Source: a virus
Taxonomy: Duplodnaviria > Heunggongvirae > Uroviricota > Caudoviricetes
Virus record (IMG/VR): IMGVR_UViG_3300031758_000002
Strand: one strand, 5' to 3'
Length of the DNA: 64,000 bases
This document shows positions 30,208-64,000 of this stretch, piece by piece; positions within the stretch are counted from its first letter, which is position 1; every line of letters starts with the position of its first letter. The notes beneath the pieces are model-generated. The model had not been told where the DNA came from and did no database searches. It worked only from the letters and a program-made list of their open reading frames with translations. A program made the translations under genes and the position numbers.

Positions 30208-30939
30208 TTAATTTACATATTTCCATAAAAATCCACCACATTTATTTCTTTTACCTTGGCAGACCATAACAATGTTACCTTTATTTTTTATATTATTTTC
30301 TTTTGCTGCTATTTCTAAAGACATATATGTTTCAATAATATTACCAGTTTCTAAACATATTTTATTAACCGATTTAATATTTTTAGCCGGTTTACCCTTA
30401 TTAGGACTTAAAACGCTTAATTTTAATTTATGTTCTTCAGAAAGTTTTCTTCCTTTTAACGACTCACTTATATTTTTTTTAGTTTTATCACTTCTTTTTT
30501 TCCCAACTAAAGATTTGCCGATATTATCTTTATGTTCTTTACTTAATTTTTTATTTTTCCAATAACTATGTTTGCCAATATTATTTAATGAAATTTTTTT
30601 TCTTGTCTCTTCATTAGGTATGTAATTAAGATTTGATTCCCCACCATCGGTTAAATTTAATAAATTATTAGTTTTTTTATATTTTTTTATCCAAAAAATC
30701 TCTTTATTGGCCCATTCTTTATTATTTGTTTCCTCAATTATTATTATTTCAGGTTTTTTATTCTTTTTCAATAATTTATTTATCCACAAATATAACGGTC
30801 TTTTAACTTTTTTTTCACCTAAATAAATGTGTTCTTTTAATCTTTTATTAACATTTTTTTTAGTTTTACCGACATATCTTATTATTTCAGGTTCATCAGG
30901 GTTATATATCCCATATATAAATATTTTTTCCATATCCAT
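30208..30939 (-). mobile_element. Free-standing GIY-YIG homing endonuclease with NUMOD3 and NUMOD1 DNA-binding motifs
   Basis: 243 aa. IYGIY...YVGKT, E..WI catalytic region, repeated KLSKEHK..I...L.GKK, C-terminal NIVMVCQGKRNKCGGFLWKY. Very Lys/AT-rich, between dnaB and nrdB. Confidence 0.9.
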
Positions 30940-35938: not shown

Positions 35939-36595
35939 TTAAGGCATCATATCATCGTCATCGTATGTATCAAAAGTATCTTTAATTTGTTTTGGTGAAA
36001 AATCTTCAGCCTCATCAGTTGTTAGAATATATTCTTCTCTACCTTGTTTTTCAAACTGATCTTCTTTATCTTCAAAATAATCAGATAGTTTTTGATTAAA
36101 AGGACCAGAATCTAAACTTCTTAATTCAAGTTTTTCTTCAGGTGTTTTAGGTCGATATTTTTCAATTTTTTGTTCTAATGAATTAACCGCAGACATTAAA
36201 TTATCCATTTCACCCAATTTACTTTCTAAATTTTCAAGTTGTTTAAATAGATTGTCAAAATATTCATCTTGTTTTGTTTCAATATTTTTTTGACTATTTA
36301 CTAAGTCAGTGATTTCAAGTTCTTCTTTATCCTCTTCATCTTTACCAACTTCTTCAACATCAGGGTCTTGCGCCACATCAATTGGTTGTGGTGTCTCAGC
36401 TTCAGGTGCGGGTGGTGGAGGTAAAGCTCCGGGAGCAGGTGTCTCAGCTCCAGGTGCAGGTGGTAATCCAGCATCAGGTGCCGGTAGTGGAGCCGCCGCA
36501 GGGTCTGGTTCAACAGGAGCGTCTTGTTCCATTATATAATTATTAATTGACTTATATCTGTTAATTTCTTCTAATATTTTTTTATCTATTTTCAT
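35939..36595 (-). CDS. Pro-rich, acidic coiled-coil protein (possible internal head/scaffold-like protein)
   Basis: Probable start MKIDKKILEE at 36595. PAP-rich disordered region, then acidic coiled coil. Confidence 0.6.
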   Translation of the reverse strand: MKIDKKILEEINRYKSINNYIMEQDAPVEPDPAAAPLPAPDAGLPPAPGAETPAPGALPPPPAPEAETPQPIDVAQDPDVEEVGKDEEDKEELEITDLVNSQKNIETKQDEYFDNLFKQLENLESKLGEMDNLMSAVNSLEQKIEKYRPKTPEEKLELRSLDSGPFNQKLSDYFEDKEDQFEKQGREEYILTTDEAEDFSPKQIKDTFDTYDDDDMMP

Positions 36596-36596
36596 A

Positions 36597-36824
36597 TTAA
36601 CCATTTAATAATTGTTTTATACCTGTTTTGGTTTCCACTTGGATTTTTTTATTAGTGTTCATTGTATTATCAACTCTTTCTATTAGTCCGTCTTTCATTC
36701 TGATAGTATAACAGTCTCCAGTATCCAAATCACAAACTTCTTTATACCCATTTCCTTTATCTTTCTCCGTAACTCTTGTGTTTTTACCCAAGTAGTTATC
36801 CAAAATTAATTTAGTATTACTCAT
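36597..36824 (-). CDS. Small hypothetical protein
   Basis: 75 aa with own upstream TATTTATA motif. Contains EVCDLDTGDCY. Confidence 0.7.
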   Translation of the reverse strand: MSNTKLILDNYLGKNTRVTEKDKGNGYKEVCDLDTGDCYTIRMKDGLIERVDNTMNTNKKIQVETKTGIKQLLNG

Positions 36825-52731: not shown

Positions 52732-53631
52732 TTACTTTGATTTAATTTTCAATATTGTTCTTTTAACTAGTTGCTCCATCATAGTTTTTTCATCATCTTT
52801 TGTATGATAAGTTCTTAATATATTATCTGGTTTCTTTTCAAAATGTTTTTTCATTACTTCTACATTTCTTATATCATCATCTGAAAAACCTACCATAGGC
52901 ATTTTAGGAACAAAGTTATTACTTACATCATTTATGAATTGATATTCTTTTTTCTGTAATCTAATTGACATTCTTTTAACATAATTAATAAATTCCTCCA
53001 TTGCTTTAACTTTACCTTCTTCAGGATTAGTCGCGGAACCCGCACCATAACTCACAGGGTAAAATTTACATCTATCAAGATAATCTCTGATTAACCAATT
53101 TTCATCTTTAATTGGTTTTAATCCCATAATCTCCCTGTATCTAATAAGACTCTCCACAAGTTTTTCTTTATCAAGTCCACCTCTACCCATCAAAATTAAT
53201 TTTAACACACCTTTTTTAAGTGTATTTGGGTGATGTCCTCTTGCGGTAATGATTGAAAATACTGAACCGTTATTAATTGCCTCAATAAAATCCGACCAAG
53301 GTCCTCTAACTAACGGGGCGTTTTCAATATCCCTCATAAACTTTGAATCCCCTTGAGTTCCAAAAAATCTGAACGGGTTTTCAGCAAAACCAACAATAGT
53401 CTCCCCGTCATATTCAAAAGGAGTTTTTCCAATGTCAGTTCTATATTCCGCAAAATCTTCAGTTGACATACCAACCTCATCACCACCTTCACTCATTAAA
53501 ATAATTTGAGTTGGCATTTTCATAAGATTATCATCCCAGTCAAATGCATAATATTTCACACCGTATTTTTTTTCCTCAACTTCGTTAACCATCTCTTTGA
53601 TGATTTGTCTTGTTAAAACACTATAATTCAT
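52732..53631 (-). CDS. HAD-superfamily hydrolase
   Basis: 299 aa. Motif I FDWDDNL, motif II IITARG, motif III K, motif IV GFSDDD. Confidence 0.7.
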   Translation of the reverse strand: MNYSVLTRQIIKEMVNEVEEKKYGVKYYAFDWDDNLMKMPTQIILMSEGGDEVGMSTEDFAEYRTDIGKTPFEYDGETIVGFAENPFRFFGTQGDSKFMRDIENAPLVRGPWSDFIEAINNGSVFSIITARGHHPNTLKKGVLKLILMGRGGLDKEKLVESLIRYREIMGLKPIKDENWLIRDYLDRCKFYPVSYGAGSATNPEEGKVKAMEEFINYVKRMSIRLQKKEYQFINDVSNNFVPKMPMVGFSDDDIRNVEVMKKHFEKKPDNILRTYHTKDDEKTMMEQLVKRTILKIKSK

Positions 53632-57357: not shown

Positions 57358-57392
57358 CTTTGGTGAGATTTTATTCTGCCTTTATTCTACCT

Positions 57393-57554
57393 ATGAAAGA
57401 AACACCTAAAAAAATAAAGAATCTTAAGATTTCTGTTGAGGTTCACGATATACTAAAAAAGTATTGTGATAAGCGCGGAATTAAAATGTATAGATTTTTA
57501 GAAAATCTAATTACAGAAAAGTGTAAAGAAAAAAAGGATATATACGGGGAGTAG
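57393..57554 (+). CDS. Ribbon-helix-helix (CopG/Arc-like) DNA-binding protein
   Basis: 53 aa from ATG 57393: KNLKISVEVHDILKKYCDKRGIKMYRFLENLI (beta strand, helix, G-turn, helix). Divergent from the sheath gene. Confidence 0.7.
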   Translation: MKETPKKIKNLKISVEVHDILKKYCDKRGIKMYRFLENLITEKCKEKKDIYGE

Positions 57555-58593: not shown

Positions 58594-59598
58594 TTATTTT
58601 ACTATTTTTGGTTGTTCATTAAAAGTTGCTTTTGATCTTGAGTTAACAGAATAATTTTTATTATCAAATATTAGTATTTCTTTATTATTTGCAAAAATTA
58701 TTTTATTTACCATTTTTTTAGATGAATAATCTCTCATACCGTAAGTATAAACGGTATAAACTCCATCTTTTTCAAAATATGATGTTAATGGTTTAACTTG
58801 ACAATTAATCCCGTTAATTGTTACATCAATACCGTACCATCTATCCATTTTAGAACCGTGAGGATAAAAAGTAATAGAAGCACTTTTAAGTTTGGTTAAA
58901 AGGTATTTAACGGAATCCCTCTCTAATTTTAACCCATTTTCAATTGACTGCCATTGTCTATCAACTAAAAGTTGTGTGAATGCATCATCATTTTTAAATA
59001 AATTTATCATCCAATCAATAATATCTTCATTACTGTCTTGTTCTTTATATCTTAAAAATATCAAATCATGAATTTCGGGCTTGGTATCAAAATAATTCAT
59101 AATAGACCAATCTTCTGTTTGATCATTAATTTTATCACCAATAGTGTAAACACCTCTTAAACCCGCACTATATATATCATCCTCAGACATCCAATTATTA
59201 GGAAACGCCAAACTCAATGCCTTTCTAATATTATTCGGAGTAATTCCCATATTTTGAGGTTCATTAGCGCCTTCCCCCAAATTAAAATCTTTATCTAATA
59301 ACCATTGATCAACACTTATGGTTTCTTTTTCAACATTAAATCTTAAATCACTTTTATTGAAAATAAACTCCCCACGGTTACCAACCAATTTAATTTTTCC
59401 TGGTATTGGTGATTTATCAGGTACTGATCTTACCTTATTAAAAAAATATTTTTTGGTAGTTCCTTTCTGCCAAGGATTCACACTCAAATAAGTATATTTT
59501 GTTGGTTCATCAATGATATCAATTTCTTCTTCTTCATTCACTAACCTCATCACTTTAAAATATTGTGACTCAGACAACATTATTTTCATTTTTCTCAT
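58594..59598 (-). CDS. Hypothetical protein with possible C-terminal PD-(D/E)xK nuclease motif
   Basis: 334 aa. MDRWYGIDVTINGINCQVKP fits a D..GID-x(n)-QxK core. N-terminal MKIMLSESQY leader. Confidence 0.5.
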   Translation of the reverse strand: MRKMKIMLSESQYFKVMRLVNEEEEIDIIDEPTKYTYLSVNPWQKGTTKKYFFNKVRSVPDKSPIPGKIKLVGNRGEFIFNKSDLRFNVEKETISVDQWLLDKDFNLGEGANEPQNMGITPNNIRKALSLAFPNNWMSEDDIYSAGLRGVYTIGDKINDQTEDWSIMNYFDTKPEIHDLIFLRYKEQDSNEDIIDWMINLFKNDDAFTQLLVDRQWQSIENGLKLERDSVKYLLTKLKSASITFYPHGSKMDRWYGIDVTINGINCQVKPLTSYFEKDGVYTVYTYGMRDYSSKKMVNKIIFANNKEILIFDNKNYSVNSRSKATFNEQPKIVK

Positions 59599-60167: not shown

Positions 60168-61931
60168 TTGGATATTCTAACGAAAACGATAGAGCAAAAA
60201 GCATTAGAAGTACTTGAGGTATATTCAGGTGCGAATAACTATATTTTATCTTTAAAAACTAAAAAAGAAAAGAGTAAAAAATTCTTTCCTACTAGATCAC
60301 AATCAGATTATATAAATACTTATCATGATGTAAAACCAAAAGTTGCTCGTAAATGGGTTGACTTGGATTCATACTTCGCAAAGAAATTTGCTGAAGAAAA
60401 ATATCTATTAGAAGTTCCTGAAACTGTTTATGTTGAGAAACTTTTAGTGGAAAAAGAAAAGTCATATCATATTTGGGGTAAATTTTTTGAGAAGGATGAT
60501 TTAACTGAATTTTGGGTTCCTAAATCCGCATTAATTAAAACCCACACAATAGAGAAAGTTGATATTGATTATTCTAAATACGAACATAGACCACCACTTA
60601 CCCACCAAAAAGAAGCGATTGAGAAATTAGTTGGTTCTAAAAGATTTATTCTTGCGGATGATATGGGACTTGGTAAAACAACTTCCACAATAATTGCCGC
60701 TTTAGAAACAGGTGCAAAAAGAATTTTAATTGTATGTCCCGCATCATTAAAAATAAATTGGCAACGAGAGATTGAAAATTATACTGATCGTAGTGTTTAT
60801 ATTAGTGAAGGTAAAAAATTCTCTACAGAAGAAGACTTTACGATTGTTAATTACGACATTCTTAAAAATTTCTACGATACAAAAAATAAAGACAATTCAA
60901 TCATACATAATTCAAATTTTGACTTGGTTATTTTGGATGAGGCACATATGATATCAAATCCACAAGCTCAACGAACTAAAATTATTAATTCATTCGTTAA
61001 AGATATTAAACGAGTGTGGTTGTTGACAGGAACACCAATGACATCTCGTCCCATGAATTACTATAATCTTTTGAGTATCATCGAAAGTCCCGTAGCACAG
61101 AATTGGATGGCTTATGCTATCCGATACTGTCAGGGATATCAATTCATGGCAGGGAAAAGAAAAGTATGGAATGTACAAGGAGCATCAAATCTTGAGGAAT
61201 TAAGAGACAGGACTTCAAAACAGATGTTAAGACGATTGAAAGAAGATGTCCTTGATTTACCAGATAAAATTATTTCACCAATATATCTAAGATTAGTTTC
61301 TAAAGACTACGAAGAAATGATGGGAGAATATTATGATTGGTATGAAAACAAATCTGACGAATCATCATCTTTGACTATTCAGTTTAGTAAATTGATGAAA
61401 GTTAGAAAAATTATTGCAAACGAAAAAATCAAACACACAATTGAATTTGTTGAGAACATAATTGAACAAGGTAAAAAGGTTATCATATTCACAAATTTTA
61501 CGGATACATTACAAATGATACATAATCATTTTGGGAAACAGTCTGTTTACTTGGATGGTAGTTGTACTAAACCTCAAAGACAATATGCCGTAGATCAGTT
61601 TCAAGATAATGAAAAAATTAAAGTATTTGTAGGTAACCTTAAAGCGGCAGGTGTTGGTTTAACATTAACATCGGCAGAAGTGGTAATAATGAATGACTTA
61701 TCATTTGTCCCTGCGGAACACGCACAGGCTGAGGATAGAGCGTATCGTTACGGACAAAAAAATAATGTTCTTGTTTATTACCCATTATTTGATAACTCAA
61801 TTGAGGGCGCAATATATGATATTCTTACTAGAAAAAAACAAATCATAAATACCGTGATGGGTGATGACTTACTTGAAAATGGTGGAGATGTTGTAGAGGA
61901 AATACTCAATTCAATTAACAAGAGAAGATAA
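60168..61931 (+). CDS. SNF2-family (SMARCAL1/HARP-like) helicase
   Basis: 587 aa, TTG start. ILADDMGLGKT, VCPASL..NW..EI, DEAH, LLTGTP, GVGLTL, QAEDRAYRYGQ. Confidence 0.92.
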   Translation: MDILTKTIEQKALEVLEVYSGANNYILSLKTKKEKSKKFFPTRSQSDYINTYHDVKPKVARKWVDLDSYFAKKFAEEKYLLEVPETVYVEKLLVEKEKSYHIWGKFFEKDDLTEFWVPKSALIKTHTIEKVDIDYSKYEHRPPLTHQKEAIEKLVGSKRFILADDMGLGKTTSTIIAALETGAKRILIVCPASLKINWQREIENYTDRSVYISEGKKFSTEEDFTIVNYDILKNFYDTKNKDNSIIHNSNFDLVILDEAHMISNPQAQRTKIINSFVKDIKRVWLLTGTPMTSRPMNYYNLLSIIESPVAQNWMAYAIRYCQGYQFMAGKRKVWNVQGASNLEELRDRTSKQMLRRLKEDVLDLPDKIISPIYLRLVSKDYEEMMGEYYDWYENKSDESSSLTIQFSKLMKVRKIIANEKIKHTIEFVENIIEQGKKVIIFTNFTDTLQMIHNHFGKQSVYLDGSCTKPQRQYAVDQFQDNEKIKVFVGNLKAAGVGLTLTSAEVVIMNDLSFVPAEHAQAEDRAYRYGQKNNVLVYYPLFDNSIEGAIYDILTRKKQIINTVMGDDLLENGGDVVEEILNSINKRR

Positions 61932-61947
61932 AACTTTCATTTGAAGA

Positions 61948-61955
61948 TATTTATT
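61948..61955 (+). promoter_or_regulatory. TATTTATT upstream motif
   Basis: A few nt upstream of the ATG at 61960 (peptidase-SOD). Confidence 0.55.
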
Positions 61956-61959
61956 GTTA

Positions 61960-63051
61960 ATGAAAGTTTCAATAAAATATCTTAAATCGGATATCCCAAA
62001 AAAAGATTACAAATTATTTGAGGATTTTATAAAATTCTTAAGTAAAAAATTGCCGTTGGTTGATGATATAGAAATAGTTTTTACGGGTGAAAGATATGGT
62101 AAAATGAGTACTGGTAGTAGGACTAACAAACATATATTAAAGATACTCGCAAAAAATAGATTAAATAGAGATATTATGAGAACTCTTGCTCACGAATGGG
62201 TTCACGAATATCAACACGGAGTTTTAGATAGAGATAAAGGTCCGGACATTGGTGGGAAAAATGAAGATGAAGCAAATGCGTTTGCGGGTCAAATTGTTAA
62301 AATGTTTGAGAAAGACTATCCAAATTATGAAAAAACAATATTTGAGGGGTTTAAATCAATATCCAATAAATTAGATATCATATCAGAACAGATAGTCCTT
62401 AAAGAAAAAGAAAACATCCAAAAACAGTTTTTAACTGAAATGAAAAAAATAGGTATTGAGAAATTACCTTATTCATATTCAGCAATTAAAAAATTTGTAG
62501 ATCCTGAGACAATGGATATTCATTATAACAAACACTACAAAGGATATGTAAAAAAATTAAACGACGCTTTATCAAGTAGAAAAGGTGATATGGAACTTGA
62601 GGACATTGTTAAATCCATTAGTAAATTTGATACTAAAGTTAGAAACAATGCTGGAGGAGCTTTCAACCATGCATTATTTTGGAAAATGTTATCCCCAACA
62701 AAACAAACACCTAAAGGTATTGTTTTTGAGAAAATAAAAAAACAATACGGTTCATTTAACAAATTTAAAGAAGAATTTAATAAAACCGCATTAGATAGAT
62801 TTGGTTCAGGGTGGGCTTGGTTAGTATTAACTAAAACAGGTAGATTAAAAATTATGTCAACCCCAAATCAAGACAATCCATTAATGAATGTTGTTGAGGG
62901 TGGTGGTTATCCACTTCTTGGACTTGATGTTTGGGAACATGCTTATTATTTGAGATACAGAAACAAGAGGGATCAGTACATTAAAAACTTTTGGAATTGT
63001 GTTAATTGGGAATTCGTCAATGAGTTATACGAATTAAGAATGAAGAAATAA
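61960..63051 (+). CDS. sodA: Fusion: N-terminal IrrE/ImmA-like HExxH metallopeptidase domain + C-terminal Mn-type superoxide dismutase
   Basis: LAHEWVHEYQH...EDEANAFAG, then from M161 (62440) KLPYSY...IHYNKH...NNAGGAFNH...FGSGWAWL...NQDNP...DVWEHAYY. Confidence 0.85.
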   Translation: MKVSIKYLKSDIPKKDYKLFEDFIKFLSKKLPLVDDIEIVFTGERYGKMSTGSRTNKHILKILAKNRLNRDIMRTLAHEWVHEYQHGVLDRDKGPDIGGKNEDEANAFAGQIVKMFEKDYPNYEKTIFEGFKSISNKLDIISEQIVLKEKENIQKQFLTEMKKIGIEKLPYSYSAIKKFVDPETMDIHYNKHYKGYVKKLNDALSSRKGDMELEDIVKSISKFDTKVRNNAGGAFNHALFWKMLSPTKQTPKGIVFEKIKKQYGSFNKFKEEFNKTALDRFGSGWAWLVLTKTGRLKIMSTPNQDNPLMNVVEGGGYPLLGLDVWEHAYYLRYRNKRDQYIKNFWNCVNWEFVNELYELRMKK

Positions 63052-63052
63052 A

Positions 63053-63060
63053 TATTTATA
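63053..63060 (+). promoter_or_regulatory. TATTTATA upstream motif
   Basis: Upstream of the ATG at 63075 (gp13-like). Confidence 0.6.
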
Positions 63061-63074
63061 ATAAAACTATTACT

Positions 63075-64000
63075 ATGGGAATTATACCAGAACCACAAAG
63101 AAGTGAATTATACACTAAAATTAGACACATACTCGGAGCACCGTTAAGGAGTGTTGAATTAGAGGACGAACAAATGGATACCCTTCTTGAATTCTCAATA
63201 GATGAGTATTCTCAAAAAGTTAATGATTGGTTGATTGAATCTCAATGGACAAGTTTATGGAATTTGAATCTTGAAACTCAATCGTTATCAAGAGCCTTTG
63301 TAACAAAAAGTTTAGATTACGAAACAAGATACACATACGCATATTCTAAAATCGTTGGGTTACAAGCGGGTGGAGAGTGGGAACTTAAAAAGGATTACAT
63401 CCAATTAGTCAAAAACCAACAAATATACGAAATACCTGAAGGAAGAGAAATTAATGAACTACTATGGTTTACTCCTGCAACACTAAACAACACAATGTTT
63501 GATCCATGGTCATTTGGTTCATTAGGATATGGTGGAGGTCTTGGTGGAGGTGGAGGTCTCGCACAAATGGGTGGTAATATGGCAGGTTCATATTTTATGA
63601 TGCCGGCTTTTGATATGTTATTGAGAATGCAAGAAATAAACATTCAAAGAAGAATTATTGCTGGTGATTTAACATATAGAATTACCGCATTACCAGGTGG
63701 TAAAAAAGCTATACATTTAATGAACACTCCTGGTGGTAAGTTTGATTTTGGTAATGGAACAATGACTAAAGGAAAAGTATGGTATTGGTACTATGATACT
63801 ACTGAAGGAGGTAGAGACAAATGTTTAAAAGATAATCCTGATATTATTAAATTACCATCTGATGTTCCGATTGATAAACTTTCTTGGGTTGATTTAAATC
63901 ATCCCGCACAAGTTTGGGTTAGAAATTGGTTTATCGCAAGTTGTAAAGAAACTCTATCAAAAGTTAGAGGTAAATTTAGTGGTAATATCAAAACACCGGA
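63075..64000 (+). CDS. Neck / head-tail adaptor, T4 gp13-like (truncated by right edge; absent from the ORF track)
   Basis: ATG at 63075 reads MGIIPEPQRSELYTKIRHILGAPLRSVELEDEQMD and stays open to the window end. LGAP...VEL..EQ and late WVRNWFIASCKETLSKVRGKFS fit the gp13 pattern. Confidence 0.8.
   Translation, partial: MGIIPEPQRSELYTKIRHILGAPLRSVELEDEQMDTLLEFSIDEYSQKVNDWLIESQWTSLWNLNLETQSLSRAFVTKSLDYETRYTYAYSKIVGLQAGGEWELKKDYIQLVKNQQIYEIPEGREINELLWFTPATLNNTMFDPWSFGSLGYGGGLGGGGGLAQMGGNMAGSYFMMPAFDMLLRMQEINIQRRIIAGDLTYRITALPGGKKAIHLMNTPGGKFDFGNGTMTKGKVWYWYYDTTEGGRDKCLKDNPDIIKLPSDVPIDKLSWVDLNHPAQVWVRNWFIASCKETLSKVRGKFSGNIKTP

Follow-up and report, generated by a model that had tools for sequence, protein, structure and literature searches.

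A zincin–superoxide dismutase fusion in T4-related freshwater jumbo phages, proposed as head-packaged cargo

Phage superoxide dismutases (SODs) are usually classed as auxiliary metabolic genes expressed during infection. Several described systems bear on the phage SOD reported here. The T4 prohead protease gp21 cleaves after L/I-X-E, removing capsid-targeting propeptides from internal proteins (PMC9026906; PMC9958956), and the T4 capsid-targeting sequences are N-terminal and 10–19 amino acids long. Iyer et al. (2017; PMC5512222) described phage polyvalent proteins, in which an HExxH-plus-Glu zincin is strung to unrelated enzymes in changing combinations. These proteins are thought to be packaged and processed, autoproteolysis is the role proposed for their zincin-like peptidases, and SOD goes unmentioned in that account. 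Among stress-activated zincin proteases, IrrE and CapP carry HTH and GAF domains (10.1101/2022.04.27.489752). For SODs, a C-terminal Gln combined with a Gly two residues before the Asp ligand is tied to Mn preference (PMC10172142).

The fused gene and its setting

The window analysed is a 64,000-nt portion of a partial, 118.6-kb virus record that contains sheath, baseplate, neck and replication genes. Its source is an uncultured, T4-related freshwater jumbo phage. Close matches to the DNA come from lake and freshwater metagenomes, among other datasets; those listed contain no RNA dataset, which does not bear on expression. Near-complete relatives that bear the fusion measure 257–296 kb. A Peptidase_S77 prohead protease is encoded in 5/5 of the near-complete relatives tested, and a gp23-type capsid protein is also present in near-complete fusion carriers; the gp21-type protease and gp23-type capsid are known from these relatives, the phage's own 118-kb contig being partial. 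The locus comprises the following features.

60168..61931 (+): SNF2-type helicase gene, directly upstream, a constant neighbour (phrog_62, E 4e-114; synteny)
61948..61954 (+): TATTTAT motif, 12 nt ahead of the start, a putative late-promoter element, conserved upstream of fused and unfused genes
61960..63051 (+): whole open reading frame, zincin–linker–MnSOD (frame, homologues, junction bridged in independent assemblies)
63075..64000 (+): neck (head–tail adaptor-like) gene, directly downstream, a constant neighbour (phrog_211, E 4e-4; synteny)

The 363 codons form a single open frame that encodes a zincin domain, a 35-residue linker and a Mn-type SOD. The protein carries two intact predicted catalytic sites, formed by H78, E79, H82 and E102 in the zincin and by H188, H237, D323 and H327 in the SOD, joined by a peptide that corresponds to the leader found on unfused SODs. 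The fusion is genuine and occurs widely, with hundreds of independent fused sequences; 120 full-length homologues occur among the matches listed, and contigs from two independent runs span the junction without a gap (X10, 61700–62690; X11, 61700–62543). When 80 loci were fetched through the neck gene, 57 carried the fusion, 18 an SOD without the zincin and five no SOD. The fusion or SOD gene always lies between the SNF2 helicase and neck genes, and complete genomes that carry the fusion have one copy each. A standalone zincin gene was sought in five genomes with unfused SODs (12–28% complete), and none was found.

These results uphold the original prediction of a continuous fused frame in a phage head/neck region. 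They also answer its concern that the fusion might be confined to one assembly, since many genomes and two assemblies contain it, and its proposed comparison of related phages returned both fused and split arrangements. The prediction knew of no fusion of this kind, and it does appear to be undescribed: the literature searched, of which coverage was incomplete, yielded no description, and papers on MIJ3, bS21-phage and moraphage and a jumbo-phage review do not mention the SOD.

Of 84 distinct fused genes, 83 have the TATTTAT motif 11–14 nt ahead of the start codon, and 14 of 16 unfused genes also have it upstream. Across the genome it precedes 28% of genes, mostly structural, compared with 2.4% of random 60-mers; the neck gene has its own copy at 63053–63059. 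It may therefore be a late-promoter element, which would imply late expression of the fusion. A scan for sigma-70 promoters and terminators gave nothing beyond shuffled sequences.

Further genes were noted in the window and in related genomes. In three relatives (L015, L017 and L023), tandem paralogous genes of 147–151 amino acids with leaders lie between the fusion and the neck gene, and their domain recurs as the C-terminal extension of two longer fusions (P0004 and P0013). Another genome (L169) has a standalone zincin gene two genes past the major capsid gene and close to the prohead protease gene. Elsewhere in the window (30208–30939, minus strand), a gene flanked by those for the helicase and ribonucleotide reductase encodes 243 amino acids, the N-terminus of which, judged by eye, resembles a GIY-YIG homing endonuclease.

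Two predicted catalytic domains

61960..62346 (+): small zincin domain, residues 1–129, with a three-stranded sheet, HExxH helix and Glu helix (AF2 pLDDT 93.5)
62191..62205 (+): HExxH motif HEWVH (H78, E79, H82), 98–99% conserved in 120 homologues and invariant in a 59-row alignment
62263..62265 (+): E102, predicted third zinc ligand, 20 residues past H82, invariant in the 59-row alignment
62440..63048 (+): Mn-type SOD, residues 161–363, with ligands H188, H237, D323 and H327 and second-sphere residues Y196, Q304 and G321 (Pfam, conservation)

The N-terminal domain is confidently modelled as a zincin, so the prediction's own counter-case, failure to model in this way, did not arise. The model shows the superfamily features defined in PMC5512222, namely an HExxH helix, a Glu on the next helix and a three-stranded sheet with an N-terminal helix. 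E102 is proposed as a zinc ligand because its position fits this zincin pattern; it opens modelled helix 100–119 within the stretch EDEANAFAG and is 98–99% conserved in the 120 listed homologues. The zincin-type metal site originally predicted is therefore borne out by conservation and model. Its 'E..AN.FA' signature stands for the Glu and fails for the Phe, which just 37% of homologues retain. A single-sequence fold of the full 363-residue protein reached a pLDDT of 47, and that model was set aside.

In fold comparison of the zincin model every top match was a protein of zincin fold, with middling Z values throughout: YbeY 9.8 (rmsd 2.8, 108 aligned), lugdulysin 9.3, aminopeptidase N 9.0 and Wss1 8.9, with PprI at 6.5 (rmsd 3.3, 84 aligned) and CapP at 5.4 further down. 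Fold alone is no proof of peptidase activity, because the top match, YbeY, is a nuclease. A profile of the domain had no significant match among PDB sequences, and NCBIfam and PHROGs searches gave weak matches alone. The family numbers 1742 representatives, which are viral wherever the taxa are known, and the domain occurs alone or fused to kinase-like, nucleotidyltransferase-like and other domains.

The SOD domain was matched by Sod_Fe_N (74.5 bits, cut-off 27; E 9.6e-21) and Sod_Fe_C (141.5 bits, cut-off 20.9; E 1.1e-41), as a profile search suggested with the original prediction was expected to show. Its four ligands (codons at 62521, 62668, 62926 and 62938 for H188, H237, D323 and H327, respectively), the gateway residues H192 and Y196, the water-binding C-terminal Q304 and G321 are each present in 120/120 listed homologues. 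The NCBIfam Mn model scored 204 bits and the Fe model 171, both beneath their own cut-offs, and the best solved-structure match is a MnSOD (PDB 5a9g). Together, these features indicate an intact SOD of predicted Mn type, and the earlier description of a complete Mn-type domain with all its ligands holds.

The phage SODs share the ligands and Mn-type second-sphere residues of Bacteroidota MnSOD (SodFM1) and of phage Fe/Mn SODs such as PA5oct gp261, and are 48–57% identical to Bacteroidota enzymes. In a quick tree, however, they form one branch apart from cellular SODs with support 100. Fused and unfused SODs interleave within it; the strong branches are compatible with a single origin and force no more than that, so the order of fusion and loss events is not fixed. 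Among the matches listed in a pattern-seeded search, 62 of the 82 nearest cellular SODs carry a twin-arginine export signal, and phage SODs have an (I/L)-x-E leader in that place. Most of these nearest cellular sequences (L172–L249) are twin-arginine-signal, partly lipoprotein-like Bacteroidota enzymes. Descent of the phage SOD from a Tat-exported Bacteroidota enzyme is accordingly a lead suggested by sequence comparison.

The host is probably a member of the Bacteroidota, because the nearest cellular SODs are mostly from that phylum; the neighbours of the capsid protein, though, include both Flavobacterium and Microcystis phages. One contig labelled as a Polynucleobacter MAG (L170) has the phage order SNF2 helicase, SOD with nuclease-like domain, neck gene, and is probably a mis-binned phage contig.

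The linker and its (I/L)-x-E motifs

62335..62439 (+): linker/leader, residues 126–160, with (I/L)-x-E at E129, E143, E149 and E160 (motif enrichment; homology to unfused leaders)

The two domains of a real fusion had been recognised originally, and the (I/L)-x-E-rich linker, the informative part, had been overlooked. Unfused SODs of this locus begin with a leader of 27–30 residues that aligns with residues 131–160 of the fusion; the leader is thus N-terminal in the unfused proteins and internal in the fusion. In the simplest history, a zincin gene would have come to be read through into an SOD gene with its leader, or the zincin would have been lost.

Linkers contain 212 (I/L)-x-E motifs compared with 102 ± 8 after shuffling (z 13.5, or 9.4 without the last site), a density of 9.7 per 100 residues that is twice the shuffled value. 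Unfused leaders are also enriched (z 5.2), as is the segment immediately behind the SOD in proteins that go on to a third domain (z 10). The residue immediately ahead of the SOD is Glu in all representatives, fused (73/73) and unfused (9/9), and Ile or Leu lies two places ahead of this Glu in 79 of 82; a distant unfused SOD (L170) lacks the final Glu. Zincin relatives without an SOD show the same distribution, with enriched borders (z 5.3 and 3.8) and a depleted core (z −8.1); some standalone zincins (P0126 and P0146) have no leader. The observed/expected ratio is 0.47 in the phage zincin and 0.72 in the phage SOD, both depleted, compared with 1.23 in cellular SOD and 1.06 in 15 non-virion enzymes of the same phage. 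All of these values concern a short motif that is common in Glu-rich helices, in related, non-independent sequences, and the shuffles used to gauge enrichment ignore helical periodicity.

By analogy with T4, from which the protease specificity in the source phage is assumed, the linker motifs are predicted prohead-protease sites and the linker a predicted capsid-targeting leader. The gp23-type capsid protein of the relatives has a LINE motif at residues 57–60, just before the part that aligns with T4 gp23 residue 80. In the alignment it stands 14 residues away from the T4 cut, so positional homology is not claimed.

The modules around the leader are swappable: the zincin occurs alone, the SOD with its leader, the SOD with a nuclease-like domain, and all three together. 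Elsewhere in the window, the gene at 58594–59598 (minus strand) encodes a protein that opens with an (I/L)-x-E leader and has a PD-(D/E)xK-like region at its C-terminus; its homologues are fused behind the SOD in five relatives (L016, L063, L086, L120 and L139), and it is probably a further swappable cargo module. Two other proteins, encoded at 52732–53631 and 35939–36604 (both minus strand), have short N-terminal leaders with (I/L)-x-E and few such motifs elsewhere, and are candidate head cargo.

Proposed head cargo and alternative explanations

It is proposed, as a fairly probable explanation, that the fusion is packaged in the head and cut by the prohead protease into a zincin and a MnSOD. 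The fusion would be a cargo precursor made late, in which both enzymes share one promoter and one loading signal. The leader would direct this precursor to the prohead core in the manner of a T4 capsid-targeting sequence, and a gp21-type protease would then cut after (I/L)-x-E, above all at E160, to yield two products, a mature SOD that begins at residue 161 and a zincin whose end lies near E129. Both would be ejected with the DNA, after which the SOD would clear superoxide early in infection and the zincin would cut a host or phage protein; their activities need no chemical coupling.

This explanation is favoured because the linker, the unfused leaders and the post-SOD stretch are enriched in (I/L)-x-E, and because the borders of zincin relatives are enriched while folded cores are depleted. 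It is further favoured because relatives encode the Peptidase_S77 protease and gp23-type capsid, and because the modules swap, TATTTAT is common to structural genes and the gene adjoins a neck gene. It is weakened because the leader is internal here and N-terminal, at 10–19 residues, in T4, because the two standalone zincins are leaderless and the L170 SOD has no final Glu, and because, in a crude test over the whole genome, TATTTAT was not associated with genes that have leaders (Fisher p 1.0).

Among the closest known systems are T4 IPI–III and Alt (PMC9026906; PMC9958956). Both cases involve a phage lineage that has a T4-type capsid and a T4-type prohead protease, a leader ending in L/I-x-E directly ahead of the mature domain, and non-essential, variable cargo. 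Here, the leader is about 30 residues long and internal in the fused form, and the predicted cargo is SOD plus zincin. As head cargo, the fusion would work like the T4 internal proteins and resemble polyvalent proteins, with a cargo described in none of the literature searched. A possible parallel for a virion SOD, and a weak one, is PA5oct gp261 (EST35_0261, L081:4956–5504), an SOD-like protein annotated as hypothetical with an I-x-E leader; it carries a flag for ESI-MS/MS detection in virion preparations, in a list that also includes non-virion enzymes.

It is unlikely, if still worth weighing, that the fusion is an auxiliary protein, made late, that stays in the cytoplasm and never enters the head, its SOD buffering superoxide during virion assembly and the linker being a leftover helical spacer. 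The intact SOD site and the late-type motif fit this equally well, and absence of the SOD from 5/80 loci of relatives resembles the behaviour of an accessory gene. Left unexplained are the invariant Glu of (I/L)-x-E at the SOD border, found in fused and unfused proteins and repeated after the SOD, and a depletion of the motif that affects the folded cores but not cytoplasmic phage enzymes.

Improbable, too, is self-cleavage by the zincin, whether inside the head or once injected, to free the SOD as in a polyvalent-type protein. Autoproteolysis is what PMC5512222 proposes for such peptidases, and this zincin likewise joins many partners. The junction motif, however, is kept in SODs with no zincin in cis, and the zincin is often standalone. 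Compared with polyvalent proteins, the present protein is small and its junctions point to a prohead protease rather than self-cleavage; the likeness seen to those proteins, whose zincins fall into 12 MPTase clades (PMC5512222), is one of architecture.

The original prediction placed the N-terminal domain with IrrE, ImmA and CapP and envisaged a stress-responsive protease, coupled to superoxide removal, that cuts a repressor, the RHH protein.

57360–57554 (+): Arc-like RHH gene, transcribed divergently from the sheath gene (phrog_582, E 7e-5)

This switch is very improbable. With IrrE/PprI, CapP and ImmA the domain has in common the zincin fold, HExxH and a Glu in the next helix; nine of 59 family members match Peptidase_M78 weakly (PF06114; best E 0.0098), M78 proteins make up 14% of one look-alike Atlas cluster, and PprI is a fold match at Z 6.5. 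Distant kinship with Peptidase_M78 is likely, and the modelled fold appears to suit other zincins at least as well as IrrE. However, the proposed search of the N-terminal part against Peptidase_M78 returned 13.3 bits against a gathering cut-off of 22, the His-to-Glu spacing is 20 rather than the 29 of CapP, and the HTH and GAF domains of IrrE and CapP are missing, residues 130–363 comprising linker and SOD only. An adjacent cognate HTH repressor was sought at the locus and not found, the neighbours always being the SNF2 helicase and the neck gene. The RHH gene lies 4.4 kb from the fusion and stays by the sheath gene even in loci without the zincin (L128 and L149). A lytic-type structural context and a late-type upstream motif also argue against such a switch, and the proposed coupling is unsupported, the two domains also occurring apart and with other partners.

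Joining of two genes through a lost stop or mis-assembly is refuted by the independent fused sequences and bridging contigs, and independent initiation of the SOD at Met161 (62440) is scarcely credible: a Met does stand exactly at the SOD start here, as originally described, and in 84/84 distinct fused IMG/VR genes examined, but the position varies (among 120 homologues, 80 have Met and 40 Ile; certain unfused SODs have Ala) and TATTTAT precedes the internal Met in 0/84.

Were the protein simply cytoplasmic, it would amount to a modest joining of two known folds. If instead it is head cargo, a widespread lake-phage lineage has SOD as capsid cargo, and superoxide would matter either to virion survival or during the opening minutes of infection; (I/L)-x-E leaders with motif-depleted cores would then provide a simple sequence rule by which injected proteins could be catalogued in uncultured jumbo phages. 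Tentatively, a large freshwater jumbo-phage group may have taken a Tat-exported Bacteroidota MnSOD, swapped its export signal for a capsid-loading leader, and come to inject the enzyme ready-made with a zinc-protease effector, quenching superoxide in the host envelope or cytoplasm before phage gene expression. Such ready-made injection, if true, would amount to a virion-delivered antioxidant counter-defence.
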